Made by a program: the position numbers and the translations under genes. This document shows, piece after piece, positions 12,854-43,535 of a stretch of DNA of 64,000 nt. The stretch comes from a plasmid, in the sequence record NZ_CP090008.1; one strand, 5' to 3'. Position 1 is the first letter of the stretch; every line of letters starts with the position of its first letter. The notes under the pieces were generated by a model. The model did no database searches. It was given only the letters and a program-made list of their open reading frames with translations, and was not told where the DNA came from.

Positions 12854-12856
12854 CCT

Positions 12857-17149: not shown

Positions 17150-17160
17150 AAGGAGTTCAC

Positions 17161-19122: not shown

Positions 19123-19145
19123 AAATGGTGAAAGGGGGAAATACA

Positions 19146-19451: not shown

Positions 19452-19454
19452 ATA

Positions 19455-20153: not shown

Positions 20154-20156
20154 TAT

Positions 20157-20579: not shown

Positions 20580-20596
20580 GGGGGTGACTAAGATAT

Positions 20597-22642
20597 TTGA
20601 AACGAATAGGTGATAAAGCTGCTCGTGTTCTTCTAACGATTTTTGGAGTGAAGACAACCATTATTATAGGAACTATTTTAACTTTTGCGGTTATCTTAAT
20701 TGCAATTATCACTGGTTTAATGGGGACGATTAGTACTTCCGGTGGGAAAGGTGGCAAGACTAACGCCCAATGTGTAACCTACCAAAAAGATGGCGATGAA
20801 GAAGACGATGATGGCTCTAAGCCTCAATCGACTTCTACTAAAACAGACTCAGCATCTGCAAGCGATTCTGATCCCTTTACGAAGGGGACAAAAGCCTATG
20901 AAAATGCCCACAAAGTCTTTATGGCCTTAGTGAATGCCGGACTGTCTGGGGAATCTGCTGCAGGTCCTGTTGGTTGGGCAAACTCTGAAGGGGGCTATGA
21001 CATCATTGGACGTGCCCAAGGACATTATGGTGGTGGTATCAATGACTCCATTTCTAAGGGAGCTGTTCCAACGACAGGTGGTACGTCTAACACACTTGGT
21101 GGTGGTGGAATCTTCCAGTTTGACCCCTTCACGAAATATGCACCTTTAAATAGTCCAGACTGGGAAGATGCTGATAAGATGGTTGCCTTTGTTATTGATG
21201 CAATCTCAAAAGGTGACTGGAACCCAGCCTATGACGAATCTGGCCATAACTGGTCATTCCAGGAGTTTGCTAAACAAACCAATATCGATGAAACTGCTAT
21301 GGCATGGAATGCCTACGAACGAGGTAATATGGCTTATGTCAGACCAGAGCAAAAGAAGGCGGATGCAAGGAAGTTTGCGGAAGTCTTCGAAGCAAGTAAA
21401 TATAAGTACGATGATGCCAAGTTCCAAAAGGCGTTTGGTGGTGGTGGAGCTTCTTCCAATAACTCCTCGTCAAGTAGTCAAAGTTCAGATGATGATAACG
21501 GTGACGACGATGAAGAAGATAGCGACAACGAAGACAATGATAACGATAGCAGTTCAAGTAGTTCATCAAGTGACTCTAGCAACAAGGATAGCAAAAAAGA
21601 CAGTGATAAAGACAAGAAGTCTATTGATACTGATAAGGCTATCAAGTGGTATAAGGATAAGCTAGGGAAGGTCAAGTATTCTCGTGATGCTCGTACTGGG
21701 CCAGATAGCTATGACCATTCATCTGCTCTATACTATGCCCTTGTTGACGGTGGTGCTAAAGAATCTGGTTCTCCAGTAGATACCGATTCAGAACACGATT
21801 GGTTGAAAGATAATGGTTATGAGTTAGTGTATGAGGGTGCCTGGTTGTCTAAAGATGATGTTCAAAACCGTGAAAAAGGAGATGTCATTATCTGGGGTAC
21901 GAAAGGTAGTAGCTCTGGAGATAAAGGACAGACCATGCTTGTTGAGGATAAGGAAAATATTATCCAATGTTCCCCATCGACAGACGGGATTGCTGAGAAC
22001 AATTATGGTCAATATCGAGACCGTATTACTATGGACTACGGAAAAGTCTATGTCTATCGTCCAAAAGAGTCAAAAGACAAGAAGGGTAAGGATGATGACA
22101 AGGAAGAAGTAGATGCAGATACGTGTGGTGATAGCGATAGTAGTAATCTCAATACTGATACAGGTCAGCCCCTTGATGTCCCTTATACCATTACCCAACT
22201 TTTCGGTGCATCAGCTAATGCTGGCGGTCCAAATGCAGGTTCAGGGCACACAGGAATGGACCTTGCAGCACCAGAAGGCTCTCCAATTTCTGCCGTAACA
22301 GACGGTGAAGTAGTAGAGGTCAATGAAGAGGCGATGAATATCGATGGTAACCACGTGATGCACACTCTTCCAGATGGCACTATTATATATTATGGACATA
22401 TGCGTGATGTTCCTCTTGTTAAGAAAGGTGATAAGGTCAAAAAAGGACAACTTATCGGGTATGTCGGACAAACGGGTGCAGCTACTGGACCACATATTCA
22501 CTTTGAACGTCGAAAAACGAAAGTCTTCCAGTATGGTGATTTCTTGAGTCCAGCATCAATTATTTTAGGAGATACCCAACCACAAGTTGGAATGGTGATT
22601 GATCCTAAGACACAAAAAGGTGGAGCACCATCTAAAGAATAA
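20597..22642 (+). CDS. membrane-anchored peptidoglycan hydrolase (CHAP/Amidase_5-like domain + Peptidase M23 domain), TTG start
   Basis: N-terminal TM; central KYSRDARTGPDSYDHSSALYYAL (Amidase_5/CHAP-like motif); C-terminal M23 motifs GHTGMDLAAPEG...HMRDV...GPHIHFE; Asp/Ser-rich linkers. Confidence 0.7.
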   Translation: MKRIGDKAARVLLTIFGVKTTIIIGTILTFAVILIAIITGLMGTISTSGGKGGKTNAQCVTYQKDGDEEDDDGSKPQSTSTKTDSASASDSDPFTKGTKAYENAHKVFMALVNAGLSGESAAGPVGWANSEGGYDIIGRAQGHYGGGINDSISKGAVPTTGGTSNTLGGGGIFQFDPFTKYAPLNSPDWEDADKMVAFVIDAISKGDWNPAYDESGHNWSFQEFAKQTNIDETAMAWNAYERGNMAYVRPEQKKADARKFAEVFEASKYKYDDAKFQKAFGGGGASSNNSSSSSQSSDDDNGDDDEEDSDNEDNDNDSSSSSSSSDSSNKDSKKDSDKDKKSIDTDKAIKWYKDKLGKVKYSRDARTGPDSYDHSSALYYALVDGGAKESGSPVDTDSEHDWLKDNGYELVYEGAWLSKDDVQNREKGDVIIWGTKGSSSGDKGQTMLVEDKENIIQCSPSTDGIAENNYGQYRDRITMDYGKVYVYRPKESKDKKGKDDDKEEVDADTCGDSDSSNLNTDTGQPLDVPYTITQLFGASANAGGPNAGSGHTGMDLAAPEGSPISAVTDGEVVEVNEEAMNIDGNHVMHTLPDGTIIYYGHMRDVPLVKKGDKVKKGQLIGYVGQTGAATGPHIHFERRKTKVFQYGDFLSPASIILGDTQPQVGMVIDPKTQKGGAPSKE

Positions 22643-22812
22643 ATCAAGAAGGAGAAAAAATGAAAACAAAAATCAATCAAAAAAGCATGTTTTTAACTTC
22701 CATCTATTTGGAATCAATGGTAGGTTTTCACCAAGCTATCTACCACTAATTGACCTAACTGTTAGTGAAAACAAGGCAAAATAATACATAAATATAATTA
22801 TGTATATACTAA

Positions 22813-22840
22813 AAAGGAGTCTGAATAGAGCTCCTTTTTA
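22813..22840 (+). terminator. hairpin terminator after hydrolase gene
   Basis: aaaaggag-tctgaatagag-ctcctttt. Confidence 0.45.
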
Positions 22841-22929
22841 GTCGCTTAATTTTTAACTTTCAAGTTATGAGTAGGTAGTTAAATTAAGTTATTATGAAAA
22901 GTTATAATAGGAGTAGAAAAAGTGCATAA

Positions 22930-23739
22930 TTGATTTCAATAAGGAGGGACTTAGATTTGCCTAATAATAGTTACGAAGATTTTTTATATGATGAGGATCA
23001 ACGGCTCCATAGTGTATATGAAGTTCAAAAAGAATATGAACAGAATAATGGTGATATTTCAAAGTATCGTGATAAAATGTTGTGTCCTGAATGTAAAAGA
23101 GCGAAATTACGTTTTACACATAAAACATCAGAAAGAAGAGCATTTTTATCAACTTTTCCAACCTCAAACCATGAAAAAGGTTGTTCATATAATTATGACC
23201 TAGCTTCAAATAGGGCGGTTAAGCAATTTGTAGCAACATTAACAGATGAACAAGTACATGATAGGCTTGAAGCAATGTTAAATACCTTGTTGCCTAGGTA
23301 TAGAAGAGACAATGAAAATGCAGTAAATGCTGAACAAGAGAATCCATTCGTAATAGATATAGGAGCAAGAAACCATCAGCTTAACCGAAGAGCAATATCA
23401 AGAAAGTCTATGAATCGTTGGTTTGATAAAGCGGATGAAAACAACATATTCCTATTTTATGGTAAGGTAAGGTTATCAGTTGAAGAGACAAAAACCAAGA
23501 AGGGGAAACGGTATAGATTAATTGTGAAGACCAAGAGAGGAGTGGAATGGATCCAAAAGACCAGAATTTTTAGAGGGATGGCTAAAGATGCTATCGATGA
23601 GAATACAACGTATGACCTTGCTGTTATGGGACACCTTGAATTTTATAATATCCTTCCACAAATTGTCACAGAATCATGGACTTCGATTTTGTATAGAGAG
23701 GCAAGGAGAAAAGAAGAAACAATAAAGTATATTCTTTAA
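22930..23739 (+). CDS. hypothetical protein with Cys/His zinc-finger-like motif (CPECK...H...C)
   Basis: 269 aa; LCPECKRAKLRFTHKTSERRAFLSTFPTSNHEKGC; precedes nuclease gene. Confidence 0.5.
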   Translation: MISIRRDLDLPNNSYEDFLYDEDQRLHSVYEVQKEYEQNNGDISKYRDKMLCPECKRAKLRFTHKTSERRAFLSTFPTSNHEKGCSYNYDLASNRAVKQFVATLTDEQVHDRLEAMLNTLLPRYRRDNENAVNAEQENPFVIDIGARNHQLNRRAISRKSMNRWFDKADENNIFLFYGKVRLSVEETKTKKGKRYRLIVKTKRGVEWIQKTRIFRGMAKDAIDENTTYDLAVMGHLEFYNILPQIVTESWTSILYREARRKEETIKYIL

Positions 23740-23861
23740 AAGGTGTACTTTATTTTAGGGGTGAATAATGTATATTTTAGTTCTATATTTATCTGCTTAA
23801 ATCATGTAAAAGCCGTGTTATAATTTAGAAAAGGAAAATTATACTTTTAGGAGGACAACAT

Positions 23862-25667
23862 ATGAGCAGTCGTGACAAATACACAGTAGAGTTAAAACCT
23901 TCAGCATTAGATATTAAACAAACTTACTCTGACTACCCTGAATTGAAGAATTTGCTAGAAAATTCTTCATATGATGATGGAGGTTTCTTCATTCTGAATA
24001 ACAATAAGATGTTTGATGATGATAAACGGCCTAGTATTTGTCAGCATAAAATTATTTTGGACGAAATACAAAATATTGAAATTAAAACAATAAAGGTATT
24101 GTTGTCTAAACGGTTTAATAAAAACAAAGATAATTTTGAAGCTTCCGAGACTCATAAGGATAAAAAAGGGAAGTATTTAGAGTGGACAACTAAACCTGAT
24201 AATGTCTATGGCAAACAACACATAAAAATTGATTGTTCAGTGTTTCCCAGTGAGGATATTTTTAATCGAGGACATCTAATAGCAGATTCAATTATTGATT
24301 ATTGTGACGAATTTGATTACCGTAAACGGGAAGACTTCGTTATGATCACTAATTGGTGTAATCGAGCCAATACTAATCACAAAACTAGAAAAGCTTGTGG
24401 TATGTTCTATTTTGAGAATGTTATACTTAATACATTAGAAAAAGGAATTGATGTTGAATATAGAGTTACGCCAATCTTTAAAAAGAATTCAGAAGGTGCA
24501 AAACAAGAATTTGAATACCTTCCTAGAGGCGTTATTTTAGAAGCTAAAACGCTAAATAAAGAAGCGTTTGAAGTAGAAGATGATTATGTTATCATGAATG
24601 AATTTAATGTCTTTATCCCAAATGCTCAAAATGGTTTAGACATCAATTATAAAACAGGTTCAATAAAAGCCACTTCATCTTTAACTGAAGCAAATGCAAG
24701 CCCTGCAGACCACATTAAAAAATTACCTGAACATATTATAAAGGACGCATTATCAACTATTGCAACATATCCTAAAGTAGCAGAACAAGCTAATCTATCA
24801 AGAATAGCAGCAGCTACAAGCGTGTTGAAAAATAAAGAAATTACACAACTTCTAAAGAAAATAGATAGTGTGATAGAACAATCAGGTTTGAAGCGGTTTT
24901 CAGAACAGAATAAGGAACTTTTCAAAAGTCTAAATAAAACGTCACAAATCATTAGCACGTTAGGCCAAAGTATTGCCACAGACTACCTCGTAGAATTAAG
25001 AAGACAGTTTTCAAATTTATCTGAGGTAGTAAAAGATGCTCTTACTCCATACACGGAAGAAGAGAGAAAGAGTATAATCGATAAAGTAGAAATTTTTGCT
25101 GATAAAGGCTGGGTTATCTTCTTCCAAAACAGAGCAGTCGTTAATCAGCTTTTGTTAGACGATACTGAAGACATTGAGGTGGAGTGGTTAGATAATCTTA
25201 AAGAGATTATTTCAGATACATCTAACATAGAGTATTTAGCGAGATCACAGTGTTTTTCTTATCATCTAATCCAGTCAATGGCAATGAGTTATTCAGAACA
25301 AAACTACTACGCAGCCTACACGCTTGCTTCATTAGCTATTGATGGTGCACTTAATAGATTAGCAGAGCCATTATCTAGTGAGGTGGATAAAGTGACAGCA
25401 GTTGGACACAAAGCGATAAGAAAAATTGATGAGCAAATAAGTCCTGGAGAAAAAACAGTTTTTGACTACGGCCTTTTGCATTGGTGTTATAACTTTTTTG
25501 CCGATACCCAACGATTTACTATTAATTATCCAAACAGACACATGATTGGACACGGACGTTGGGATGACGAGATTTCAGAAGAAGAGTTTTTAAAACTATT
25601 TAATGTGTTACTTTATCTTGAGGAGAATTTTGATTATTGGGCAGGAATTATTGATGAAAATTGTTAA
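23862..25667 (+). CDS. cytoplasmic protein with DNA/RNA non-specific (beta-beta-alpha-Me) endonuclease-like domain + 380-aa unknown C-terminal region
   Basis: FNRGHLIADS (DRGH-type catalytic motif) followed by ENVILNTLEKGIDVEYRVTPIF resembling the Serratia-nuclease ...RKLIDRADISSVYTVTGPLY segment; no signal peptide. Confidence 0.5.
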   Translation: MSSRDKYTVELKPSALDIKQTYSDYPELKNLLENSSYDDGGFFILNNNKMFDDDKRPSICQHKIILDEIQNIEIKTIKVLLSKRFNKNKDNFEASETHKDKKGKYLEWTTKPDNVYGKQHIKIDCSVFPSEDIFNRGHLIADSIIDYCDEFDYRKREDFVMITNWCNRANTNHKTRKACGMFYFENVILNTLEKGIDVEYRVTPIFKKNSEGAKQEFEYLPRGVILEAKTLNKEAFEVEDDYVIMNEFNVFIPNAQNGLDINYKTGSIKATSSLTEANASPADHIKKLPEHIIKDALSTIATYPKVAEQANLSRIAAATSVLKNKEITQLLKKIDSVIEQSGLKRFSEQNKELFKSLNKTSQIISTLGQSIATDYLVELRRQFSNLSEVVKDALTPYTEEERKSIIDKVEIFADKGWVIFFQNRAVVNQLLLDDTEDIEVEWLDNLKEIISDTSNIEYLARSQCFSYHLIQSMAMSYSEQNYYAAYTLASLAIDGALNRLAEPLSSEVDKVTAVGHKAIRKIDEQISPGEKTVFDYGLLHWCYNFFADTQRFTINYPNRHMIGHGRWDDEISEEEFLKLFNVLLYLEENFDYWAGIIDENC

Positions 25668-31091: not shown

Positions 31092-32015
31092 ATGCGTGCA
31101 GTATTTGGAATTGATGTAAGTAAAACAAGCTCTGAGGTGGCCATTTTAGTCAACAGTAAGAAGATTAATGGCTACACCATACTCAATGATGCCATTGGGT
31201 TCAATCGCCTGTTGGGCGACTTGAAAACTGTTCATAAACCAACTTACGTGCAGGAAGAAGTTTATCAACACCTGCGTGATTTAAGCCGTTTCTATCAAAA
31301 TATGACAGAAGATCTTGTTCAAACTAAAAACTGTCTGCACAAGGTCCTACAAGTCACCTTTCCTGAATTGGAAAATCTATTATCCACCCCTACTGGAGAG
31401 CAATATTGGAACTTAGTGATGGCTTTTCCATGCAAAGAGTTTATATTAAGCTTATCTCAAAGTAACTTGTGTGAGATTATCCGTCAATCTACCTCCAAAC
31501 GCATCTCTGAAAAGCGTATTGCTTACCTGACTGATAAACTTATAAAACTTGCTAAACAATCTCTTTGTGCGGTCAAGAAAACCTCTCCAATGCTTGAAGA
31601 GGTTCGTTACTATGCTCAAGAATTGCTTCGTCTTTCTGAACGCAGACAAGTTGTCTTAAACGACATGGTAGCTCTAGCTCAGCCTTTACCAGAATATGAC
31701 ATCTTACGGTCAATTCCTGACATCGCAGAAATCACAGCGACATCTATCATTGGCGAATTGGAAGATATTCGTCGCTTTCAGTCTACCAATCAAATCAACG
31801 CTTTTATTGGCATTGACCTGAGACACTATGAATCTGGGAACTTTCTCGCCAAGGAACACATCACTAAACGAGGTAATCCCTATGTCAGAAAAATCTTGTT
31901 CAAGTGCATTCACAACATCGCTTCAGCTAGTCATACCAATCCTTGTCATATCCCAGATTTCTATGAGAAATGTATTACCTCATTACGCATAACAAACTTT
32001 ACGATTACTCTTTGA
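31092..32015 (+). mobile_element. IS110-family transposase (possibly C-terminally truncated, 307 aa)
   Basis: MRAVFGIDVSK N-terminus and DEDD-type N-domain typical of IS110; shorter than usual ~400 aa. Confidence 0.65.
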
Positions 32016-32542: not shown

Positions 32543-32773
32543 ATGAATGGGATAGGTTATATACTTAGGAGGTTACGGAAAGAAAAAGGGATTACACAGA
32601 GAGTTATCTATACAAATCTTTGTAGTCGAAAGCAACTTTCTAGGATAGAAAATAATACATCTTTCCCATCAGTATATCTTTTATATCATATTTGCCAAAG
32701 ATTAGAAGTGACAATAGATGAAGTTATCAAATTAACATTAGAAGGAGAAAGTAATGGCAATCAGCACAAGTGA
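32543..32773 (+). CDS. short XRE/Rgg-like HTH transcriptional regulator (76 aa)
   Basis: ILRRLRKEKGITQRVIYTNLCSRKQLSRIENNTSFPSVYLLYHICQRLEV; overlaps start of QueA-like gene. Confidence 0.6.
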   Translation: MNGIGYILRRLRKEKGITQRVIYTNLCSRKQLSRIENNTSFPSVYLLYHICQRLEVTIDEVIKLTLEGESNGNQHK

Positions 32774-33800
32774 ATTAAAGTATGAATTACCGGTCGAATT
32801 AGCTGCTCGACAACCTATAGAACTGACATCGAGTAGAAGGGATGGAACTAGATTAATAGTAGGTTTTAAAAACTCTCAAAAAATCATTGATGATGTTTTT
32901 ACAAATTTTACTAACTATATAAATTCAGGAGACTTACTTATTTTAAATAATAGTAAAACAATTTCACCAATTTTTTATGCATATTCCGATAAATATGGAG
33001 AGGTGAAATTTCATATTAAGACTAAGACTGATTTAGGATATGTATCATATATCAGAATTAGAGAAGATTTAAAAGATAAAATTATTGGTGAGAACTTTAT
33101 TGTAACTGATGAAATAGAAGTATCTGTAAATAAACGAACTGAAGGCGATGAATTTTTGTGTAGTTTTAATTGTTCTGAAGAGGATTTGTATAACTATTTA
33201 TTAATTAATGGTGAGGCAGTGAAATCAATTTATACAAAGAAAAAATGGTCAATTGATTATTATCAAAATGAAGTTGCAAATAAATTAGGATCTTTTGAAA
33301 ACCCAGCAGCGAGTCGGCACTTTACTAATAAAATGTTAAATATTTTACGTGAAAAAGGGGTAAGAATCGCGTATATTACTTTAAATTGTGCTTCGGTTGA
33401 TACAAAAATTTTTGAGGATATTATAGAGAAACATGTTGTTTTTAAGGAATACTATGAGATCCCCGAAGAAACAGTAAGATTAATTCAAGAAACAAAATTA
33501 AACGGTAATAAGGTGTTTGCGGTTGGAACTACAGTTATTAGGACTTTAGAAAGCTGTAATTATGATAATTTCAGAATTACTTCCCCTTTAAAAAATTATA
33601 CTGATTTATATATTCATCCTGGACATAATTTTAAAGTAACAGATGCTTTAATTACAAATTTTCATGGATCAATGACTAGTAGACTTGCTCTTTCTGCAGC
33701 TGCAATTGGTGTGGATAATATTATGAATTTATACAAACATGCAATCGAAGAAAAATATTTATTTTATGAGTTTGGGGATGCGAATTTATTATTCATGTAG
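32754..33800 (+). CDS. QueA-like S-adenosylmethionine:ribosyltransferase-isomerase paralog
   Basis: Collinear with QueA: YELPVELAARQP..., GDLLILNNSKTI, VGTTVIRTLES (QueA VGTTSTRTLE), ITNFHGSMTSRLALSAA, YKHAIEEKYLFYEFGDANLLF (QueA YxHAxEExYRFFSFGDAMLI). Confidence 0.75.
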   Translation: MAISTSELKYELPVELAARQPIELTSSRRDGTRLIVGFKNSQKIIDDVFTNFTNYINSGDLLILNNSKTISPIFYAYSDKYGEVKFHIKTKTDLGYVSYIRIREDLKDKIIGENFIVTDEIEVSVNKRTEGDEFLCSFNCSEEDLYNYLLINGEAVKSIYTKKKWSIDYYQNEVANKLGSFENPAASRHFTNKMLNILREKGVRIAYITLNCASVDTKIFEDIIEKHVVFKEYYEIPEETVRLIQETKLNGNKVFAVGTTVIRTLESCNYDNFRITSPLKNYTDLYIHPGHNFKVTDALITNFHGSMTSRLALSAAAIGVDNIMNLYKHAIEEKYLFYEFGDANLLFM

Positions 33801-33831
33801 TTTAGTAAATAACTAGAAAGGGGGTGATGAT

Positions 33832-33906
33832 ATGAAGAAGTTGACATTGAAAGAACTGGTTGATAAAAATAATGATTTGCTCTCACGTTGCACAATCAAT
33901 AAATAA
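33832..33906 (+). CDS. candidate 24-aa precursor peptide MKKLTLKELVDKNNDLLSRCTINK
   Basis: Strong RBS AAAGGGGGTG 6 nt upstream; located between QueA-like and PqqD-like genes. Confidence 0.4.
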   Translation: MKKLTLKELVDKNNDLLSRCTINK

Positions 33907-33972
33907 TTAACCACGGAAAAATCCAATGAAGAATGATATTATTTCTTCATTGGAGTTTATTTTGGAGGGCTT

Positions 33973-34239
33973 ATGCTTTATAAAGTTAATCGAGACGTAG
34001 AAATAACAGAAGAAAATGGATATCAAGTTATTCATAGATATTCAGATGATTCGTATTTTTCCTTAGAAAATGATACTTTGTTTATTTTATTGAGTTATAA
34101 TGGTTTAAATAAATTGCAAGATATTGCAAAAAGCTTTGCAAAATATAAAGGAATTTCTAATAACAAAGCTTTAGAATACGTAGAACAAATCCAAAAATAT
34201 TTAGTTTCAGAAGGAATAATTGTCATAGATGAGAACTAA
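33973..34239 (+). CDS. PqqD-like (RiPP recognition element) protein
   Basis: 88 aa; ...FSLENDTLFILLSYNGLNKLQDIAKSFAKYKGISNNKALEYVEQIQKYLVSEGIIV matches PqqD pattern. Confidence 0.55.
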   Translation: MLYKVNRDVEITEENGYQVIHRYSDDSYFSLENDTLFILLSYNGLNKLQDIAKSFAKYKGISNNKALEYVEQIQKYLVSEGIIVIDEN

Positions 34240-35095
34240 ATCTAAGTTATTTAATAATATAGCAGAAGATAATATAGACTCCCTTTATGTACAATTGTGT
34301 AATTTAATATATAAAAATGGTAAAGTTGTAATTTCGAGAGGCATGGAGGTAAAAGAATTAATTGGGGTTAACTTAATTTTAACTAATCCCAAAAGACGCT
34401 TTTTAGAAAATGCCAACAGAAAATTAAAACTATACTACGCTATTGGAGAATTCATATGGTATATGAGGGGGAGTAATAGTTTAGAGGAAATTCAGTATTA
34501 TGCCCCTAGCATGTCACAGTTTTCTGATGATGGTTCTATTCTTCAAGGAGCTTATGGACCTAAGATTGTAACTCAAATCGATAAATTGATTACACTGCTA
34601 AGACATGACAAGGGGACTCGTAGGGCAGTTTTACCTATTTATTCTGCGAGTGAATTAGGTAAAGATAGTAAAGATATCCCATGCACACTCACATTAGAGT
34701 TTTTGATTCGAGCTAATAAGCTTCATCTCATTGTCAATATGAGATCAAACGACATATTTTTGGGGCTTCCGTATGATATTTTTTCTTTCACAATGATTCA
34801 GGAATACATTGCAAATAAGATAGGTCTAAATTTAGGATATTATTATCATAATATCGGAAGCTTACATGTCTATAAGAAACATTTTGATAGAATAAAAGAA
34901 ATATCAACTATGAATATACATAAAACATCAGAATTCAATAACTCAAATTTAATCTTTAAAAATTTAAGTGATTTGTTAAACATTGAAAAATCAATTAGAA
35001 ACGGAAGTCCATACAATATGAGCAAGGAATTACTTAATAATTCGGATTTCAATAGAATAAAGATTGAACTAGAGAAATATAAGGATAGTAGGTGA
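34229..35095 (+). CDS. thymidylate synthase-fold pyrimidine-nucleotide hydroxymethylase/methylase-like enzyme
   Basis: LKLYYAIGEFIWYMRGS (ThyA WKGVLEELLWFLKGS), RRAVLPIYSASELGKDSKDIPCTLTLEFLIRANKLHLIVNMRSNDIFLGLPYDIFSFTMIQEYIA (ThyA RRIIMSAWNP...PPCHALCQFYV...[25 protein letters not shown]); catalytic Cys retained. Confidence 0.7.
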   Translation: MRTKSKLFNNIAEDNIDSLYVQLCNLIYKNGKVVISRGMEVKELIGVNLILTNPKRRFLENANRKLKLYYAIGEFIWYMRGSNSLEEIQYYAPSMSQFSDDGSILQGAYGPKIVTQIDKLITLLRHDKGTRRAVLPIYSASELGKDSKDIPCTLTLEFLIRANKLHLIVNMRSNDIFLGLPYDIFSFTMIQEYIANKIGLNLGYYYHNIGSLHVYKKHFDRIKEISTMNIHKTSEFNNSNLIFKNLSDLLNIEKSIRNGSPYNMSKELLNNSDFNRIKIELEKYKDSR

Positions 35096-35098: not shown

Positions 35099-35683
35099 AT
35101 GTCTATCGGAAAACTAATCTATATATGTGGAATTGATGGTTCTGGGAAAACAACATTAGCCAAGAATCTTTCTAATCATTTTGGTGATAAATCAATATTT
35201 TTGCCATTAAATAATTCAAAAAGATTCATTAATGAAATTGATAGTTTCTGTAAAGAGTATAATACAGACAGGTGGAGTATATTTTCAGAATATTTTAGGG
35301 GAAATATTTGGGCGTTAGAGCTAGTTTATTTTTGTGAAAATATTTTAAAACCCGCTCTAAAAAAGTACGAATATGTATTCATCGATAGATATTATATATG
35401 TAATGCTATATATTCTAATTTATTAGTCACTAATAAGTTGGTTAATAGACTGCATGAATTACTGATTAAACCAGACATGGTTTTTTATATCAATATTAAT
35501 CCAGAGATCGCTTTTGAAAGAATTTTAAAAAGGAATGAGCAAAAAACGCCGAAAGAAAGTTTGGACAATTTAAAATTAGCTTCTGATTTATATTCAAGAT
35601 ATCTTGAAGATAAAAGTTATTATGAATTAGACGGAGAGAAGTCAGAGAATCAAATTTTAAAGTCTGTATTACAAATTATTTAG
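35099..35683 (+). CDS. dTMP-kinase-like P-loop nucleotide kinase
   Basis: LIYICGIDGSGKTTLAKNL (Tmk Walker A GIDGxGKTT); 194 aa. Confidence 0.65.
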   Translation: MSIGKLIYICGIDGSGKTTLAKNLSNHFGDKSIFLPLNNSKRFINEIDSFCKEYNTDRWSIFSEYFRGNIWALELVYFCENILKPALKKYEYVFIDRYYICNAIYSNLLVTNKLVNRLHELLIKPDMVFYININPEIAFERILKRNEQKTPKESLDNLKLASDLYSRYLEDKSYYELDGEKSENQILKSVLQII

Positions 35684-35699: not shown

Positions 35700-36689
35700 A
35701 TGAAATTTGAAACAGTACTAGATTTTTATATATACTATTTGGAAATCCTTCTGAAAAGGGAAAAAAATCATACTAAAGTTGTCCCATTTTCGGAGATAGC
35801 TAATAAAGTCGAGGTTTTCAACAATAGTATTGAGATTGTTCAAGGAACTCATAGTAATATGCTATTTAGTAGATCTGAATTTAATTATAATGTAGTGCAT
35901 ATGCTATATTCTTTGAGTGGGAGAACAGATTCATATATATTAAAAAAATATAAAAGTTCATATTGGCGATATTCGAATGAGGGATTTTATGTCAATACAA
36001 TTGGGGAGCGGTTATATACTTTATATGGTAATCAAATTAAACGTTGTGTAAATTTTTTAAAAGAAAATATTTATACGTCAGATGCCGTTTGTTTTATGAA
36101 ATCTTTTGAAAATGAAAATATTGAATGTACTCTAAATCTTCATTTTTATTATAGAGATAATCGATTAAATTTGGAGTTATCATATAAAGGTTCTAGTTTA
36201 TTAGAGTATACTAACTCCGATCTATTTATTTATTCTTCTTTACTTTCATTAATGAGCCATTGGTTAGATGTGGAACCTGGAAGTTTATTTTTAAAATGTC
36301 ACTCGATTTTTATTTCAGAAAATGATCTAGAAAGAGCTAAGAAACTATTAGAAATTGGTAAATCGTTGAGAAATATTGGTATTTCAATGAATCATAGGTT
36401 TTCATCCAGTATTGAAACTTATCGTTCAGAATTTTCTGAAGCTATCAATAGAATAATTGCTTGGGATACTGTTGATATTACTCAGAGAGTTTCTGAGGAA
36501 TTAGAGTATATAAAAAAGTATTTTACTCCATATATTCAAGACTTGTTACTTATTCTTTTAGCGGATAGATTTCATCAAACTGATAGTGATTATAAAATAG
36601 TATTGAGTCAGCTCTCAGATAGGTCAATTGGGAAATTTAAGGAAACAATTGATAAAATACAATTTAATAAATTATTAGAGGTAATTTAA
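35700..36689 (+). CDS. second thymidylate synthase-fold paralog
   Basis: SDAVCFMKSFENENIECTLNLHFYYRDNRLNLELSYKGSSLLEYTNSDLFIYSSLLSLMSHWLDVEPGSLFLKCHSIFI aligns to ThyA C-terminal half incl. catalytic Cys position. Confidence 0.55.
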   Translation: MKFETVLDFYIYYLEILLKREKNHTKVVPFSEIANKVEVFNNSIEIVQGTHSNMLFSRSEFNYNVVHMLYSLSGRTDSYILKKYKSSYWRYSNEGFYVNTIGERLYTLYGNQIKRCVNFLKENIYTSDAVCFMKSFENENIECTLNLHFYYRDNRLNLELSYKGSSLLEYTNSDLFIYSSLLSLMSHWLDVEPGSLFLKCHSIFISENDLERAKKLLEIGKSLRNIGISMNHRFSSSIETYRSEFSEAINRIIAWDTVDITQRVSEELEYIKKYFTPYIQDLLLILLADRFHQTDSDYKIVLSQLSDRSIGKFKETIDKIQFNKLLEVI

Positions 36690-36691
36690 AT

Positions 36692-36952
36692 TTGATAATT
36701 AAAAAGAGTCTTGCTGCTATACAACGTTCAGTATCAGGAAATGAATTTTTGTTAAATTTACTTACTGATAGGACTTTTCTCCTTAATGAAGTTTCTCTCT
36801 ATATTTGGAGTAATCTTGGAGAATGTAGTACTGAGGAAATAGCTGCAAATTTATCTAAAATGTATAATGAAAAAACCGAGATAATTCAAAATGATGTAGA
36901 TGAAGTTATTAATATTTTACAGGAAGAAGGGTTAATTGAAATTCTGAATTAA
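36692..36952 (+). CDS. PqqD-family RiPP recognition element protein (TTG start)
   Basis: LLNEVSLYIWSNLGECSTEEIAANLSKMYNEKTEIIQNDVDEVINILQEEGLIE = classic PqqD pattern. Confidence 0.65.
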   Translation: MIIKKSLAAIQRSVSGNEFLLNLLTDRTFLLNEVSLYIWSNLGECSTEEIAANLSKMYNEKTEIIQNDVDEVINILQEEGLIEILN

Positions 36953-36970: not shown

Positions 36971-37657
36971 ATGGCTGAAATTATTTATAGTATGATTGCT
37001 AATGAGATTTCAGAGCAATTGTCAGAGGATAATATTGTAATTTGGAAATCTGAGATGGATGGACTGGGGACCTCATTATCTGATATCGATGCATATTGTA
37101 TCTGCAAGGAAGAAAAAGTAATAAAAAGCTTTGTATATGAAGGGACACCGGTTGATATTGAATATGTGACTTCGGAAAGGCTAAAAGCTAAAATTAATAA
37201 AATTTATCAATACACTAATCATGGTGATATTTATAAAGGATTAGATGAAGATTTGAAATTATTTTACAGATTACAAAGAGGAGAGAAATCAGCTAAATTT
37301 TCATTGATTGGAGTTGAAGTTCCCACACTTGAGGAAATTTCTAAGATTGCAGCACAATATTATTATGAATTATTTTTAGGTCTGTATGAAGATGCTTATA
37401 AAATGTACCATGGGAAAAATAAATTAGATTCTTTTGTCCTTTCCCTAGAGACATTACAAATGTCTATTGCAACTTATTTAGCTAGGGTAGGGAAACCACA
37501 ATTTAAGAAAAAATGGCTATTTAAATATTTTAATATAGTAGCTAACAATTCCCTATATAAAGATTTAATTACACAATTAGAATCAACACAGGAATATGAT
37601 TTAATGGAATTCACAGAGAGTATACTAGTCAATTCAAAAAAGCTTCTAGAAATTTAG
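36971..37657 (+). CDS. Pol-beta superfamily nucleotidyltransferase
   Basis: MDGLGTSLSDIDAYCI (G[SG]x9-13Dx[DE] motif). Confidence 0.55.
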   Translation: MAEIIYSMIANEISEQLSEDNIVIWKSEMDGLGTSLSDIDAYCICKEEKVIKSFVYEGTPVDIEYVTSERLKAKINKIYQYTNHGDIYKGLDEDLKLFYRLQRGEKSAKFSLIGVEVPTLEEISKIAAQYYYELFLGLYEDAYKMYHGKNKLDSFVLSLETLQMSIATYLARVGKPQFKKKWLFKYFNIVANNSLYKDLITQLESTQEYDLMEFTESILVNSKKLLEI

Positions 37658-37857
37658 TATATTGAAAGGAGGTGAGATTATGGTCTATAAAAAACCTATT
37701 GTTGAAGATATTAAATTAAGTGCCTCTGCATTACTTGTATAATATCTTAGTATAAGTCGGAGAGTTGAACAGAATAATTATGTAGTTAATATGACTAACA
37801 GGAAGTATTACTACAAAAAATTCTGTTCAACTTTCCATTTTTTATAGAGTAATAAAA

Positions 37858-38664
37858 ATGAGCAAAATTAGGTATATCATAATAAAGATACTATTACATC
37901 AATTTTACGGAATCAAAAATATAAAATTAATAAATTGTGTTAAAAATATGAATAAAGTTTATATTTTTGAAGATATCAACAAAAAGGTCAAAATGGTTTT
38001 AAAAGTAGAATCTGAAAGAAGAATTAATTCGATCAAGTACCAACATATATTTTCCAATTATGGGATATCGCCAAAAATAATTAAAACTAGAACAGGAAGA
38101 CAGTATATAAAGATTTATAGATTGGTAATATTTGTACAAGAGTATGTAACATCTAGTAAAAGAAAGGTCACTTCAACAGAGATTGTGGGATTTTTAAAAT
38201 ATTTTTACGGAAAAATGGATGAAATAAGAGAATATTTACCCGAAGTTTTGACTACTTATCCATTATATAAGCAAGGCGCATTAAGTAAATGGTTTTATGT
38301 AGTCCATGGTGATTTACGTCCACAAAATATTATCATTACCAGGGATAGTTTTAGCGTGATTGATTTTGAGTATTTAAGTCTAGGAATTCGAGAAACTGAA
38401 ATTCTCAAGTTAATTATAATAATTTGTAAATATCAAAGTAATTTGATTGAATCGCTATATTCTAAATTCTTAGAATCAGACGTAATAGAAATGCATATAG
38501 AGGAGGCGATAAGGGTTCTTTTGTATGATCTTCTTAAATCAAATTTTCCTGAAAAGGTCAAGAATAATATTCCAAAGAATTATTTTTTAGAAATAACTTC
38601 TGAAAGGGAGGCATTAATAAACTTTTGCCATACATATTTAAAAAGAAAGGAATCCCAAAAATGA
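37858..38664 (+). CDS. APH/choline-kinase-like phosphotransferase
   Basis: FYVVHGDLRPQNIIITRDSFSVIDFEY (HGDxxxxN ... IDFE catalytic/Mg motifs). Confidence 0.6.
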   Translation: MSKIRYIIIKILLHQFYGIKNIKLINCVKNMNKVYIFEDINKKVKMVLKVESERRINSIKYQHIFSNYGISPKIIKTRTGRQYIKIYRLVIFVQEYVTSSKRKVTSTEIVGFLKYFYGKMDEIREYLPEVLTTYPLYKQGALSKWFYVVHGDLRPQNIIITRDSFSVIDFEYLSLGIRETEILKLIIIICKYQSNLIESLYSKFLESDVIEMHIEEAIRVLLYDLLKSNFPEKVKNNIPKNYFLEITSEREALINFCHTYLKRKESQK

Positions 38665-39710
38665 TTTCAACTGAGATTGAGAAAAAATATCTACTTACAA
38701 AAGAAGAATTTCTATCCTTTAGTAGAGATTTTTTTAAAAGTGCAAAAATTCAAGAACAAACTAATTATTATTTTGATAGTTTAGATTTTTCACTATTAAA
38801 GAGAGGAATGACTCTTAGAATTCGAGAAAAATATGATAAATATATTTTAACATTAAAGAAAAAGAAATCAGTCAAAATAATTGTAGAATCGGAAGAAATT
38901 AATTTCGTAATTACACCGCAAGACTTTCAAGAGGCAATCTTAACTGGAGAATTTCCCCAAAATGTAAAGAAAGAACTAGACTCATTAATTCCCGAAAAGA
39001 AAATTTTTTATCTAGGTTTTCTAAAAACTAAAAGATATGTAATCGAAAAAAATTCTTTGATATATTGTTTAGATAAAAATAATTATTTTGGAAAGGAGGA
39101 TTTTGAATTAGAAATTGAAGGAACAGAGAAAGGACTAAAAGAAATTGAAATTGATATTTCCAAGAGCAAATCTAATAATGTTGGAAAATATGCTAGATTT
39201 ATTGATGAATTATTGAAAGGAAACGGTAATTATCTGATTAAAACTCAAGTGTCTGCAATTATTCTTAATAAAAGTAGCGATAAAGTTTGTCTTATTAAGA
39301 AGGATATTCCAACCTCAAGTATACATAATATGTGGCTTCCACCCGGTGGACATATCGATTTTGGAGAAAATTTAATAGATGCTGTCAAAAGAGAGGTCTA
39401 TGAAGAGACAGGGTTAGAAGTTACGGTTTCAAAATTATCTAGCATTGTATCGTTTCATCAAAAAAAGGCAGAGCAAGCTATTTGTTTCTTTTATGTCGCA
39501 GAATCCCAAAATATTAATGAAATAAATGTCACTGAGCCAGGCATTGAATGCAGGTGGTTTAATTTAAAAGATATACTAAGTGGAGATGATATAAATATGA
39601 CATCCTATCATAAGCTTATAATATCCGACTTGCAAGATAACAGGATTTTATATTTGAATTTAAAAAAATCTGATAATCAATATAATATTGAAAATATAGT
39701 TCATATTTAA
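38661..39710 (+). CDS. CYTH (triphosphate tunnel) - NUDIX fusion protein
   Basis: N-terminus MISTEIEKKYLL (CYTH EIE[RK]KFL start); C-terminal Nudix box GGHIDFGENLIDAVKREVYEETGL; ATGA overlap with kinase gene. Confidence 0.6.
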   Translation: MISTEIEKKYLLTKEEFLSFSRDFFKSAKIQEQTNYYFDSLDFSLLKRGMTLRIREKYDKYILTLKKKKSVKIIVESEEINFVITPQDFQEAILTGEFPQNVKKELDSLIPEKKIFYLGFLKTKRYVIEKNSLIYCLDKNNYFGKEDFELEIEGTEKGLKEIEIDISKSKSNNVGKYARFIDELLKGNGNYLIKTQVSAIILNKSSDKVCLIKKDIPTSSIHNMWLPPGGHIDFGENLIDAVKREVYEETGLEVTVSKLSSIVSFHQKKAEQAICFFYVAESQNINEINVTEPGIECRWFNLKDILSGDDINMTSYHKLIISDLQDNRILYLNLKKSDNQYNIENIVHI

Positions 39711-39894
39711 AAGATTAAAACTAGTTATATATAAAATCTAGGTATAACTGTTCCACTGAATTCCATAGATATAATTAGCTTCTTAAATGTAGGGCTATTT
39801 TATAGCTTGAATATACAATATAAGTGCACAATAAAAACTCATAAGATTTTCTAGTAAAATAGAATTGAACGAACTAGTTACGAAAGGAAATCTT

Positions 39895-40881
39895 ATGAGC
39901 TACCATCATTTTACTATAGATGAACGTGAAAGCATTCTCGTTTACCGTACGCATGACCTAAATTTTTCTCAAATTGCTAAATCACTTCATCGTCATTAGT
40001 CTAGCAGTAGTGGTGAGTGGCAACGACATCTTAAAGAAGGAAGCTATTCTCCAAGTCATGCATAGGAATCTTATCATATGGCTAAATCACACTGTGGGCG
40101 GAAACGTATGCTTGAAATAGATCACAATTTAAGCAATACCGTCAAACATCTATTTCTCGATTACCAATGGTCTCCCGAAGAAATAGAAGGTCGGTTGCGA
40201 TTAGAGTATGGAAAAACTGTTATTAGTTATCAAACAATCTATAGAGCCATTTACAGAGGGCATTTTGATGATAACTCACTATCTCATGGTGCTCGTGGTG
40301 TCATTCGAAAGCTCCGTCATCGTGGTAAAACACGTCATACAAAAGGTTATGTCGAAAATAGAGGGAAAATCTCTATATCTCATACAATTCACGAAAGACT
40401 AGAAGATGCTAATAACCGAACTAGAATAGGAGATTGGGAAGCCGATACTGTTGCAGGTAAAACTAGAAAAGCTTGTTTAGTGACTCTAACTGACCGTTAT
40501 TCTCGTTTTCTAAAAATCCAGAAGGTAGCTGTCAAGAAAAGCAAGTTGGTAATAGAAGCTATGGTAAAAATGTTAGAGCCCTTGACGAAGCATACAATAA
40601 CTCCTGATAGAGGGAAAGAATTCACGTATCATCAGAAATTGAGCGATCAATTGAACATTGAAGTCTATTTTCCTGACCCTCATGCTCCATGGCAACGAGG
40701 AACCAATGAGAACACGAAAGGATTACTTTGAGAGTATTTTCCAAAGGGTAGTGATCTAACATTGGTTGATGATCAGACTATTCAGCTGTGGGAGAACAAA
40801 CTTAATAATAGGCCACGAAAATGTCTTAACTGGAAAACACCTTATGAAGTATTCTATGGGGAAAGTATGCACTTAATTTGA
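39895..40881 (+). pseudogene. IS30-family transposase, disrupted by stop codons/frameshift
   Basis: MSYHHFTIDERESILVYR...(stop)...RIGDWEADTVAGK...TPDRGKEF...HAPWQRGTNENTKGLL(stop)EYFPKG; reading frame broken at least twice. Confidence 0.7.
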
Positions 40882-40953
40882 CAATTCAAGAGTAAAATAA
40901 ATTTAGAAGACATATTTTTATTTGATTTAAGTTATTTGATTTAAGGAGGCGAA

Positions 40954-41745
40954 ATGCTACTAGCTGTAATAAGAAGAAACTGGCAGATGTATAAAAGATA
41001 TTTTCCAGTAACATTGTTTTTTAATAGGGGTTTGGATGCTGGTTTTACTCTATTAGGTTTGTGGTTAATAGCGAATTTTTTATTCGCAAATAACATTAAA
41101 GTTGGTAATGCTATAGAGTACTCAGATTACTTCAGTTATGCTGCAGTAGGATTGGTTTATTATAATGCATCAATTGCTATTCTGATGAATGTAGGGAGAG
41201 CATTAATAACAGAAGTTAGAGAAGGCACTCTTGAAAGTACATTAGTATCTCCTTTTAACATTGTCTATTATTACTTAGGAATCTTTTTAGAGCAGTTTGT
41301 AAGGACCTTTTTGGAATTTCTATTTTCTTATATAATTGCTATTTTGCTCGGTGCAGATTTACAACAAATTACATTACTGATTTTATTGCTTGGCTTCTTA
41401 TATGTTTCGATTTGCTCTTTTTCGATGGGGGTATTCCTATCAAATATAATGTTGTGGTTTAGGGATACATTCATTAGTCAAAATACAATTTTTCTGATAA
41501 TCTTCTTGGTCTCAGGCATTACCTTTCCAATAGAATTATTGCCAAAATTTTTAAGGGTGATTAGTAATTTTATACCGTTAACATATTCTATTAAGGCAAT
41601 AAGAACCTTATATTTGGAAACCCAGACGAGTATGATCAATCTTAGCTTTATACAAGGTTTACTACTTTCAATATTATACTTCTTGATAGGGATTCTGGTA
41701 TATAATAAGGTTGAGAAAAAAATTGTAAGTGATGTTTCATATTAA
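40954..41745 (+). CDS. ABC-2 type exporter permease
   Basis: 263 aa, 6 TM helices. Confidence 0.6.
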   Translation: MLLAVIRRNWQMYKRYFPVTLFFNRGLDAGFTLLGLWLIANFLFANNIKVGNAIEYSDYFSYAAVGLVYYNASIAILMNVGRALITEVREGTLESTLVSPFNIVYYYLGIFLEQFVRTFLEFLFSYIIAILLGADLQQITLLILLLGFLYVSICSFSMGVFLSNIMLWFRDTFISQNTIFLIIFLVSGITFPIELLPKFLRVISNFIPLTYSIKAIRTLYLETQTSMINLSFIQGLLLSILYFLIGILVYNKVEKKIVSDVSY

Positions 41746-41763
41746 GTGAAGGAGAGAAATAAA

Positions 41764-42744
41764 ATGTATGAAGTATTCAATATTTCAAAAGATTATGTAA
41801 CAAAAAAGAGAATAGGATTGTTTAAACATAAAAAAGAAGTTAAAAAAGCTATACAAGATGTAAATTTATCAGTCCCTAGAGGTAAAATTATTGGTGTTTT
41901 AGGAGAAAATGGTGCAGGGAAAACAACTTTAATAAAGATGATGACAACACTTCTATCAAGTGATACTGGAAAAATTTTGATAGATGGAGTTGACATTAAT
42001 CAAAATGTAAAAAATACTCGAAAAAGGATCAACATCATTAGTGGAGGAGAAAAAAATCTCTATTGGAGATTGACTGCAGTTGAAAATTTACTCTATTTTG
42101 CTTCTCTGTACGGTCTTCCAAAGAAAGAGGCATTACCTAAGATAGATAATTTATTGAATGAATTAGGGCTTTGGGAAAGTAAGGATACTCCTGTAGAAAA
42201 ATTTTCAAAGGGAATGAAGCAACGCTTACAAATTGCTAAAGGACTAATCAATGATCCAGAATATTTATTTCTTGATGAACCTACACTAGGTCTAGATGTC
42301 AGTATTGCTTACGAGTTGAGAAAAAAATTAAAAGAGATAGCGGCTAAGCGGAATACAGGAATTTTGTTAACAACTCACTACATGGCTGAAGCAGATGAAT
42401 TATGTGATTATATTTATTTTTTAAAACATGGTAAAGTAATTGTGTCAGGTACCAAAACACAGGTTTTTGAACAATTACAGATGACACCAGAGCTTCATGT
42501 CATCCTTTCAGATAGGGATGATGAAAATTCTTCAAAGCTGGCTCAAGTTAGTCGTTTATTTCCATGTATAATTTTGGAAAAATTTGGTAGTAGTATATTG
42601 TTGAAATTCTCTCTTTCAGAATATAATGTGCAGGATATAATAAAAAGCCTATATAATAATCAAATTGAAATTAAGGAAATAAGATATAATGAGCCTACTC
42701 TTGAAAATGTTATTCTAAATTTAGGAGGAAAGAGCTTAAAATGA
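41764..42744 (+). CDS. ABC transporter ATP-binding protein
   Basis: Walker A GENGAGKTT, LSGG-like KFSKGMKQRL, Walker B LFLDEP. Confidence 0.75.
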   Translation: MYEVFNISKDYVTKKRIGLFKHKKEVKKAIQDVNLSVPRGKIIGVLGENGAGKTTLIKMMTTLLSSDTGKILIDGVDINQNVKNTRKRINIISGGEKNLYWRLTAVENLLYFASLYGLPKKEALPKIDNLLNELGLWESKDTPVEKFSKGMKQRLQIAKGLINDPEYLFLDEPTLGLDVSIAYELRKKLKEIAAKRNTGILLTTHYMAEADELCDYIYFLKHGKVIVSGTKTQVFEQLQMTPELHVILSDRDDENSSKLAQVSRLFPCIILEKFGSSILLKFSLSEYNVQDIIKSLYNNQIEIKEIRYNEPTLENVILNLGGKSLK

Positions 42745-43535
42745 ATTCGATAATAGTTAGTACTTTTAAGAGTGAATTTAGAAGAACATTTTTAAATGAC
42801 AGTATTAATAAATTTTATTTTTTTTCAATGATACTTTGGCCAATTATTTCTCTAATTCAAATTTTTTACAATATGCAAGCCTTTCCAATTACGGATATAC
42901 AAATAGCATCTCTAAGATATGAAGACCAATTAATTTATTTTATATTTATTGGTTATTGTGTTTACATCATTTTTTCAAATGCTGTTCAGAGTGCATGGAG
43001 GCTTGGTGGAGAACGATATCAAGGAACTCTTAGTCAAATTTTTATTGCTCCAATTAAAAAAAATCTATGGCTTTATGCACGTACCTTATCACTTATTTTA
43101 AGTAATTCATGGTTTTTTATCACTATTTTTATTATTGGAAATTTTGTCTATTCTGATGCTTATGAATATATTCTTGCGTCCACTTTTATTTTAGTTGTTG
43201 CATCCTGGATTTGGGCAAGTTTCTTAGGTAGTATTTGTATCAGTTTGAGAGATGCAACGGTAGTTTATGTATTATTGGAGAGCTCTCAAAATACTTTTAG
43301 TGGTGCTAAAGTTCCATTATCAAAATCACCTCGATTAATAAAAGTTATAGGGAGTTTATTTCCCATTAGCTACACAATTATTTATCTAAGAGATATACTT
43401 CTTTATAAAGAGATTATAAGTATAAGTGCTATTTGGTGCTTATGCATAAATATCTTTGTTATTTTATTAACGAAGATAGTGTTAGAAGTTGGAGAAAGAC
43501 ACATGAAAAAAGTGGGCAGTTTTGATTTATTTTGA
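42741..43535 (+). CDS. ABC-2 type exporter permease (second)
   Basis: 264 aa, 6 TM helices, ATGA overlap with ATPase gene. Confidence 0.6.
   Translation: MNSIIVSTFKSEFRRTFLNDSINKFYFFSMILWPIISLIQIFYNMQAFPITDIQIASLRYEDQLIYFIFIGYCVYIIFSNAVQSAWRLGGERYQGTLSQIFIAPIKKNLWLYARTLSLILSNSWFFITIFIIGNFVYSDAYEYILASTFILVVASWIWASFLGSICISLRDATVVYVLLESSQNTFSGAKVPLSKSPRLIKVIGSLFPISYTIIYLRDILLYKEIISISAIWCLCINIFVILLTKIVLEVGERHMKKVGSFDLF

Follow-up and report, generated by a model that had tools for sequence, protein, structure and literature searches.

The gene cluster described herein lies in a 64,000-nucleotide stretch of plasmid sequence record NZ_CP090008.1 (the window, meaning the whole stretch analyzed). 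The described systems nearest to it are those of pyrroloquinoline quinone (PQQ), lasso peptides, and microcin C, together with QueA, which acts on preQ1-34 of tRNA, and nucleotide-modifying enzymes of the mildiomycin pathway and of phages; class V lanthipeptide systems were compared as well. The subject of this study is pepA, named ORF1 in an initial annotation of the window, a small gene of 24 amino acids (aa) located between a paralog of QueA and a gene for a RiPP recognition element (RRE), RRE1. We propose that pepA is a candidate precursor or substrate peptide for a pathway of the RiPP type (peptides that are made by ribosomes and modified after translation). Positions refer to the window unless another locus is named, and the genes, signals, and hairpins of the cluster lie on its + strand.

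The PQQ operon resembles the cluster in combining a tiny peptide gene (20-30 aa) with a small stand-alone RRE of the PqqD family. However, the cluster is devoid of the radical S-adenosylmethionine (SAM) enzyme PqqE and of PqqB and PqqC, and Cys takes the place of Glu or Tyr as the conserved residue of the core. The B1 proteins of lasso peptide systems (such as TbiB1, 6jx3_B) are the best structural matches to RRE1, with template modeling (TM) scores of 0.83-0.85 to leader-bound structures, but identity to RRE1 is only about 10%. Furthermore, neither a B2 protease nor an Asn-synthetase-like cyclase is encoded in the cluster, and the pepA leader is without the Y-x-x-P-x-L...T motif of lasso precursors. 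Microcin C (MccA/MccB), a ribosomal peptide joined to a nucleotide, shares with the cluster a tiny peptide gene with a strong Shine-Dalgarno (SD) site, a terminator hairpin behind it, and export or immunity genes; a nucleotide link is presumed here. In both, an RRE-like domain would recognize the peptide, and MccB is among the weaker fold matches of RRE1. In contrast to microcin C, no ThiF-like MccB is present, pepA ends in Lys rather than Asn, and the nucleotide enzymes are of the thymidylate synthase (TS) fold, kinases, and a Pol-beta nucleotidyltransferase.

Class V lanthipeptide clusters share the APH-like kinase, which they combine with a HopA1-type lyase and a cyclase; neither enzyme family was found in the cluster, and the pepA core has only one or two Ser/Thr. 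The first TS-like enzyme, TS1, is nearest to MilA of the mildiomycin pathway, with the catalytic Cys present. Hydroxymethyl-pyrimidine pathways of phages pair a hydroxymethylase with a deoxynucleoside monophosphate (dNMP) kinase, and TS1 is likewise paired with a dNMP kinase. Unlike MilA and the phage modules, however, TS1 sits in a peptide/RRE cluster beside a second and far more divergent TS-like enzyme, TS2. Because the defining enzymes of the PqqA, lasso, microcin C, and class V lanthipeptide families are absent, pepA falls outside all four. The cluster is a candidate for a new RiPP class, with pepA as a RiPP-type precursor amid apparently undescribed enzymology.

The pepA gene, its relatives, and the hairpin behind it

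The pepA frame runs from the ATG at 33832 to the TAA at 33906 and starts 31 nt past the QueA paralog and ends 66 nt ahead of RRE1. It is preceded by the SD site AGAAAGGGGGTGAT (33815-33828), 14 nt of which are complementary to the 3' end of 16S rRNA with one G-U pair; the G-run of this site is spaced 7 nt from the ATG. The computed energy of the SD/anti-SD duplex is -21.9 kcal/mol, a value that no second ATG among the window's 2185 attains. Setting aside the second peptide gene described below, the SD energies of the other cluster genes range from -2.4 to -13.9 kcal/mol, and the best among the 35 long open reading frames (ORFs) of the window is -15.9 kcal/mol. The initial annotation had called this the strongest ribosome-binding site in the cluster, which understated the case. 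To judge chance, the 172-nt pepA spacer was shuffled 2000 times, and no ORF of at least 20 aa with an SD as strong was obtained; three of four homologous spacers likewise gave none. In addition, a blind scan of the window for ORFs of 12-70 aa with a strong SD placed pepA and a second gene, pepB, far ahead of two others. We conclude that pepA is very probably a real translated gene.

Related loci were collected in two ways. Scans with the 88-aa RRE1 protein recovered L001, a metagenome contig 97% identical to the window, and L002-L007, which come from Streptococcus mitis, a Gemella metagenome-assembled genome, and two metagenomes. L001 adds little independent information, and L002-L007 are near-identical to one another and likewise add little beyond a single locus; their cluster proteins are 43-77% identical to those of the window. 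An exhaustive HMMER search, in which the QueA paralog was the query, revealed closer relatives that stand apart from ordinary QueA as a step at 45% and 38-40% identity. The contigs of the 45% step share the gene set, and they represent three lineages (L008, L009-L011, and L012) whose QueA paralogs are about 45% identical to that of the window. A small ORF with a strong SD between the QueA paralog and the RRE gene was found in the window and four further lineages, beside QueA paralogs 45-77% identical to the window's. The initial annotation had proposed conservation in related clusters as a check on ORF1, and a positional equivalent was present in every related cluster recovered; the lack of conservation that was to count against it was not seen. 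The homologs of the window, S. mitis, and Gemella measure 24 aa; the others are longer, at 28 aa (L009-L011), 30 aa (L012), and 33 aa (L008), and those of L008 and L012 were called independently by gene callers. The S. mitis-type lineage carries a 24-codon ORF at the equivalent position with an equally long SD, and the SDs of the counterparts in L003, L009, and L012 range from -21.5 to -22.9 kcal/mol. Two irregular copies were noted among the S. mitis-type loci. In the S. mitis strain of L005 (about position 7055), the start codon of pepA is GTG in place of ATG and is still a start, and in L007 (about position 5850) homopolymer indels break the frame, probably as a long-read assembly artefact.

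The changes between the window and L003 are unevenly distributed. Codons 1-10 of pepA differ by five synonymous and no non-synonymous changes, whereas in codons 18-23 five non-synonymous changes surround Cys20, which is itself unchanged. The two genes agree in Lys24, stop codon, and length, and most identities are kept in frame 0. Residues 1-17 thus form a conserved N-terminal part, followed by a variable C-terminal part with the invariant Cys20 and the C-terminal Lys24. In an alignment of six pepA homologs, only Met1 and the Cys are invariant; the local pattern around the Cys is (S/A)-x-C-x(1-3)-K, with the Lys 2-4 residues past the Cys in all six. These observations agree with the leader-plus-short-core architecture beside an RRE that had been suggested for ORF1: the N-terminus is conserved, the C-terminus is variable, and the adjoining 88-aa protein is an RRE by its predicted fold. 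The internal Cys had also been named as a possible modification site. It is indeed kept across the pepA homologs, and as a site of modification it stands as a candidate. Taken together, pepA shows each of the generic features of a RiPP precursor that could be examined here, namely adjacency, an RRE in the cluster, and, across few lineages, conservation with purifying selection on the leader.

A hairpin with a 12-bp stem and a 9-nt loop (33922-33954), followed by a T-rich tail (33955-33963), begins 16 nt past the pepA stop and just ahead of the next SD. Its computed stability is -19.8 kcal/mol (z -4.1), and none of 200 shuffles was equally stable. Hairpins of unrelated sequence occupy the equivalent place behind pepA in L003, L008, L009, and L012, that of L008 with a run of six T behind it, and comparison of the stem in the window with that in L003 shows a compensatory G-C to A-U change. 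The hairpin at 33922-33954 escaped a simple terminator scan because of its 9-nt loop, and the term terminator therefore stays presumptive. A leaky hairpin behind the structural gene is the usual layout in lantibiotic and microcin C operons. By analogy, we infer that the hairpin is a leaky terminator after the structural gene, which may act as a partial terminator or transcript stabilizer.

The initial annotation had proposed a second small ORF, ORF2 (33926-34000), as a further precursor candidate. Both small ORFs are located and translated as it had reported, but the description of them as overlapping is wrong, as they are separated by a 19-nt gap. ORF2 offers a 24-codon open frame from an ATG adjoining the RRE gene. 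However, its 5' portion of 29 nt (33926-33954) falls within the arms and loop of the conserved hairpin, which the initial annotation had overlooked, and the frame continues across the SD of RRE1 into the first 28 nt of the RRE1 gene, which are coding sequence in another frame. A weak ribosome-binding site and an overlap with the start of the PqqD-like gene had been reported for ORF2; accordingly, its SD is -3.5 kcal/mol and the RRE1 ATG (33973) lies inside it. The frame ends after nine codons in the S. mitis-type loci L002-L006, no counterpart was found in L008, L009, or L012, and even the 97%-identical L001 carries a non-synonymous change in it. With a frame no better than chance that is laid across the hairpin, we rejected ORF2 as a gene, and its role as a second precursor peptide retains next to no probability.

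Predicted recognition proteins, the second peptide, and the QueA-like enzyme

RRE1 (33973-34239) encodes an 88-aa, divergent PqqD-like protein that is predicted from its fold to bind a leader peptide. No Pfam or NCBIfam model matched it. The AlphaFold (AF2) model, with a predicted local distance difference test (pLDDT) score of 78.6, displays the strand-strand-strand-helix-helix-helix layout of RREs, and a Foldseek search with this model returned leader-bound lasso B1 proteins (6jx3_B, TM 0.85; 5v1v) and PqqD (5sxy) as top matches in the Protein Data Bank (PDB). In addition, BLASTP linked RRE1 to the PF05402 PqqD protein behind the QueA paralog of a more distant locus, L013 (E 2e-4). Relatives of RRE1 were very few among 5.8 billion proteins. 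Given the position of pepA and the fold of its neighbor, we consider it likely that pepA is an RRE-bound substrate peptide.

The cluster contains a second RRE, PqqD2 (36692-36952), a canonical member of the PqqD family (PF05402, E 2e-11). A conserved 20-aa peptide gene, pepB (37680-37742), which the initial annotation had overlooked, was found farther downstream between the nucleotidyltransferase and the APH-like kinase. Its SD (37664-37675) is a perfect 12-nt match of -21.5 kcal/mol, the second strongest among the small ORFs of the window. Homologs of pepB in the equivalent position were recognized in L001, L003, L009, and L012, with a weaker candidate in L008, and the N-terminus is conserved as K-K-P-I-V in close lineages. 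A long, terminator-like hairpin with a T-run (37759-37840; -36 kcal/mol, z -6.3) follows pepB, and an equivalent hairpin is present in L009. The cluster therefore comprises two peptides and two RREs. From position and the type of N-terminal motif, we infer that RRE1 pairs with pepA and that PqqD2, probably together with the nucleotidyltransferase, is the partner of pepB. The initial annotation had pictured one peptide for both PqqD-like proteins, which is probably wrong, pepB being the likelier partner of the protein at 36692. The N-terminal K-x-P-x-(I/L/V) of pepB and of the peptides in the distant loci L013, L015, and L018 resembles that of PqqA leaders; this likeness is a lead only.

The QueA paralog (32754-33800) has the fold of the SAM ribosyltransferase-isomerases and matches this family over its full length (PF02547, E 1e-73; PDB 1vky, E 3e-51). 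Its score against the NCBIfam QueA equivalog model is 225 bits, compared with a cut-off of 324. The S. mitis carriers possess a cluster copy, 77% identical to the paralog of the window, plus a second QueA with 29% identity. On both counts, a score below the equivalog cut-off and the presence of another copy in the S. mitis carriers, the paralog departs from canonical QueA, and its substrate is presumably not tRNA. In six of the seven closest representatives of the QueA paralog that were looked up, an RRE gene lies directly downstream, and in two S. mitis genomes RRE-family matches occur in the cluster only and none beside the housekeeping QueA. These two observations indicate that a QueA-like enzyme and an RRE form a constant module. 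Some representatives of the QueA family (P0015 and P0026) are much longer, at 474 and 807 aa; their QueA domain is C-terminal, and they are possible fusions.

The module also occurs in more distant settings. L013/L014 (L013, 2458-4150) combine a QueA-like enzyme, PqqD, and a Cys-core peptide with TldD/PmbA and are without TS genes. L018 (430-1972; 49% GC) likewise has the QueA-like enzyme, PqqD, and a Cys-core peptide without TS genes, accompanied by UDP-glucose dehydrogenase, a glycosyltransferase, PIG-L, a major facilitator superfamily (MFS) transporter, and TldD/PmbA. L015 (772-13029) is far richer, with a QueA paralog, PqqD, two TS-like genes, a kinase, NTP_transf_5, an Orn/DAP decarboxylase, an acyl-CoA dehydrogenase, a carrier protein, an ATP-grasp enzyme, an HFCD flavoprotein, a dCMP deaminase, and APH; its 29-aa peptide (10483-10572) has the Cys at the end. 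All peptides of this wider family (L013/L014, L015, and L018) carry a Cys in a short C-terminal core, which makes the Cys the constant candidate nucleophile. The gene content of the minimal, TS-free clusters suggests that the QueA-like enzyme may act on the peptide itself.

Nucleotide enzymes, a proposed pathway, and competing explanations

Downstream of RRE1 lies a series of enzyme genes assigned by family models and structural comparison. TS1 (34229-35095) has the thymidylate synthase fold and is closest to the cytidine monophosphate (CMP) 5-hydroxymethylase MilA (PDB 5b6d, E 4e-37, catalytic Cys aligned). It is followed by a dNMP/dTMP-kinase-like kinase (35099-35683; PF02223, E 2e-22) and by TS2 (35700-36689). 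This TS-like protein is very divergent, has an additional region at its C-terminus, and reaches PF00303 exactly at the cut-off (24.3 bits). TS2 gave no PDB match by sequence; its catalytic Cys is kept in all six orthologs, and its gene lies directly behind RRE1 in most related clusters. In L001 (2628-3616), TS2 is called as two pieces of 209 and 130 aa, owing either to a frameshift in this copy or to faulty assembly. At the position of pyrimidine specificity, where ThyA has its uracil-specifying Asn, the two TS families have Asp. Read in the light of dCMP hydroxymethylase, this Asp points to cytosine nucleotides. The Pol-beta-type nucleotidyltransferase (36971-37657) has no Pfam match and was assigned through an ESM Atlas feature score of 0.95 to NTP_transf_2/Polbeta clusters; its L009 ortholog gives weak Polbeta/NTP_transf_2 matches, and in one structural neighbor cluster 32% of the members have a PqqD domain. 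Behind pepB are an APH/protein-kinase-like phosphotransferase (37858-38664; PF01636), conserved in all related clusters, and a CYTH-NUDIX fusion (38625-39710; PF01928, PF00293) of a triphosphate tunnel with a nucleoside-diphosphate-X hydrolase. Two ABC-2 permeases with an ATP-binding cassette (ABC) ATPase between them (40954-43535; Pfam) would provide export or self-protection. The operon begins with an XRE-type helix-turn-helix (HTH) regulator of 76 aa (32543-32773; Pfam HTH_19/HTH_3), conserved in L003 and L012, whose end overlaps the start of the QueA paralog. The gene order in distant clusters is QueA paralog, pepA, RRE1, TS2, APH, TS1, kinase, PqqD2, and nucleotidyltransferase, and Rce1-like genes are present in L009 and L012. 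A reading of the cluster as a defense system was dropped, as the PADLOC models matched only the generic kinase and NUDIX.

As the best explanation of the whole, we propose with a fair degree of confidence that pepA is the precursor of a RiPP-type pathway whose enzymes are paralogs of those that modify tRNA and nucleotides. In this pathway, pepA would be highly translated, with the hairpin at 33922-33954 keeping its mRNA above that of the enzymes, and its N-terminal residues, about 17 in number, would serve as a leader bound by RRE1. RRE1 would then offer the C-terminal core, (S/A)-x-C-x(1-3)-K, to nearby enzymes, the QueA paralog first. With SAM, the QueA paralog may alkylate the invariant Cys20, or less likely the Lys amine, with a SAM-derived ribosyl or cyclopentyl unit, by analogy with QueA chemistry in which a peptide nucleophile would replace the preQ1 amine. 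TS1 and the kinases would make an activated 5-hydroxymethyl-cytidine nucleotide, and TS2, the pair of PqqD2 and nucleotidyltransferase, or both could join the modified cytidine nucleotide to pepA or pepB, pepB serving the PqqD2 branch. The CYTH-NUDIX protein may clear stray modified nucleotides as self-protection, and the ABC-2 system may export the product, presumably an antimicrobial, or protect the producer. For the individual steps, the Cys is slightly favored as the modified residue. The transfer of a ribosyl unit onto the peptide by QueA-type chemistry is tentative. More doubtful still is the full proposal that a QueA-like enzyme with a PqqD-type RRE defines a new RiPP class, with SAM ribosyl placed onto the core Cys and, in this cluster, a C5-modified cytidine nucleotide then joined to pepA and/or pepB by the TS-fold enzymes, the kinases, and an RRE-dependent nucleotidyltransferase. 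The resulting peptide-nucleoside hybrid would be the work of recruited tRNA- and nucleotide-modification paralogs throughout.

Several points weigh against this proposal. The transcription and translation of pepA are deduced from its sequence; no RNA data set was among the sequencing runs listed for the window, and the few contigs of low depth from four candidate RNA or metatranscriptome runs, two of them probably DNA, carry no information on expression. The leader/core pattern appears thinly based because five independent lineages were available, two of which are close to each other, and the leader is not confidently alignable across the 45%-identity clusters. Ten peptides compared with the precursor families of Pfam and NCBIfam, including PqqA, at E values up to 10 gave no match. 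In the cluster of the window, neither a leader peptidase nor a cleavage motif of the double-glycine or another known type could be recognized. RRE1 is followed by TS1 in the window and L003 and by TS2 in other lineages; adjacency is therefore uninformative on which enzyme uses RRE1. No QueA-family enzyme is known to act on a peptide. Finally, full-text searches, which left most subscription journals outside their reach, turned up no paper that connects RiPP, RRE, or PqqD with enzymes resembling QueA or TS.

Among the other explanations, pepA could be a scaffold peptide comparable to PqqA, mycofactocin MftA, and the pearlin scaffolds, contributing no more than one or two residues of its C-terminus (Cys and/or Lys) to the product. 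The product would then be a modified cytidine nucleoside or nucleotide metabolite, with the rest of pepA discarded or recycled. The very short length of pepA and the limitation of core conservation to Cys and Lys fit such a role, as does the fact that most cluster enzymes (the MilA-like TS1, the kinases, and NUDIX) belong to nucleotide metabolism. PqqD proteins serve the scaffold-type pathways of PQQ and mycofactocin, which also counts in its favor, and TldD/PmbA or Rce1-like proteases accompany the relatives. However, the cluster of the window encodes no protease, and the flanks of the core show free variation of the kind found in exported RiPPs, while the ABC-2 export genes and the bacteriocin-like layout are compatible with either a scaffold or an exported peptide. 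The results presented here agree with both, and on balance a scaffold role is unlikely. A different role for the peptide, such as an immunity factor, a signaling peptide, or a partner of a regulator unrelated to the RREs, might be considered, as streptococci encode many small signaling peptides. Nevertheless, pepA is strictly tied to QueA-like and RRE genes in distant clusters, the adjacent regulator is the 76-aa XRE HTH protein, no Rgg- or ComR-type regulator is nearby, and the sequence is not of a hydrophobic or secretion type; such a role is highly improbable. An SHP/XIP-type signaling peptide in particular was rejected, because there is no Rgg/ComR regulator and pepA is not hydrophobic.

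It is also conceivable that pepA is a regulatory upstream ORF rather than a substrate, so that its translation and the hairpin set the read-through into the RRE and enzyme genes by attenuation. The T-tailed hairpin 16 nt past the stop, just ahead of the next SD, is placed as attenuation would have it, and this layout is common to all lineages. RNA folding, which by itself is compatible with regulation, predicted a single hairpin downstream of the stop and no competing anti-terminator overlapping the ORF. Selection acts on the amino-acid sequence, the Cys being kept across otherwise unalignable peptides, and the extreme SD is typical of structural genes. Moreover, two RREs need peptide ligands, for which pepA and pepB are the sole candidates. 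The ORF and hairpin layout even recurs after the last biosynthetic gene, at pepB, where the hairpin is like a full terminator. Attenuation carries very little probability, and we retain the interpretation of pepA as a RiPP-type precursor.

Presumably mobile setting and possible implications of the cluster

The surroundings of the cluster contain several mobile elements. An IS110-family transposase gene (31092-32015, + strand) lies about 500 nt ahead of the HTH gene, and an element of the IS30 family (about 39796-40901; rve ORF 40078-40731) splits the CYTH-NUDIX gene from the ABC genes. The IS30 element is 94-96% identical to Streptococcus plasmid copies, and only the IS30 copy matches the plasmid collection. 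In L003 (S. mitis), the cluster and the ABC transporter genes are contiguous without the IS30 split; in the strain of the window, export and biosynthesis may be uncoupled by the insertion. Together, IS110 and IS30 suggest that the cluster is mobile cargo. The neighborhood at 7275-25667 and 50624-53164 resembles an integrative and conjugative element (ICE), with a TraG-type P-loop ATPase (17161-19122), a CHAP/M23/lysozyme cell-wall hydrolase (20597-22642), a ClpB-like AAA protein (9255-11198), and an LPXTG adhesin of the antigen I/II type (50624-53164). The cluster is rare: in a sample of 401 genomes of the order around S. mitis, a TS2 homolog turned up only once, namely in the query genome itself. 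Sequencing runs with DNA of the window include isolates and food-fermentation metagenomes.

If pepA is a substrate, the QueA and thymidylate synthase folds, never linked to peptide modification, would enter RiPP enzymology. If the proposed pathway is true, peptide-nucleotide conjugates, so far known mainly from microcin C, could be formed by a new route. The peptide is readily testable, having 24 residues, one invariant Cys, and a small stand-alone RRE. Beyond this cluster, a small ORF with a strong SD and a hairpin behind it marks unannotated precursor genes for genome mining; the family models matched none of the 10 peptides scanned. The cluster is carried by ICE-like DNA of oral and food streptococci and of Gemella, and it may plausibly serve competition in such communities.

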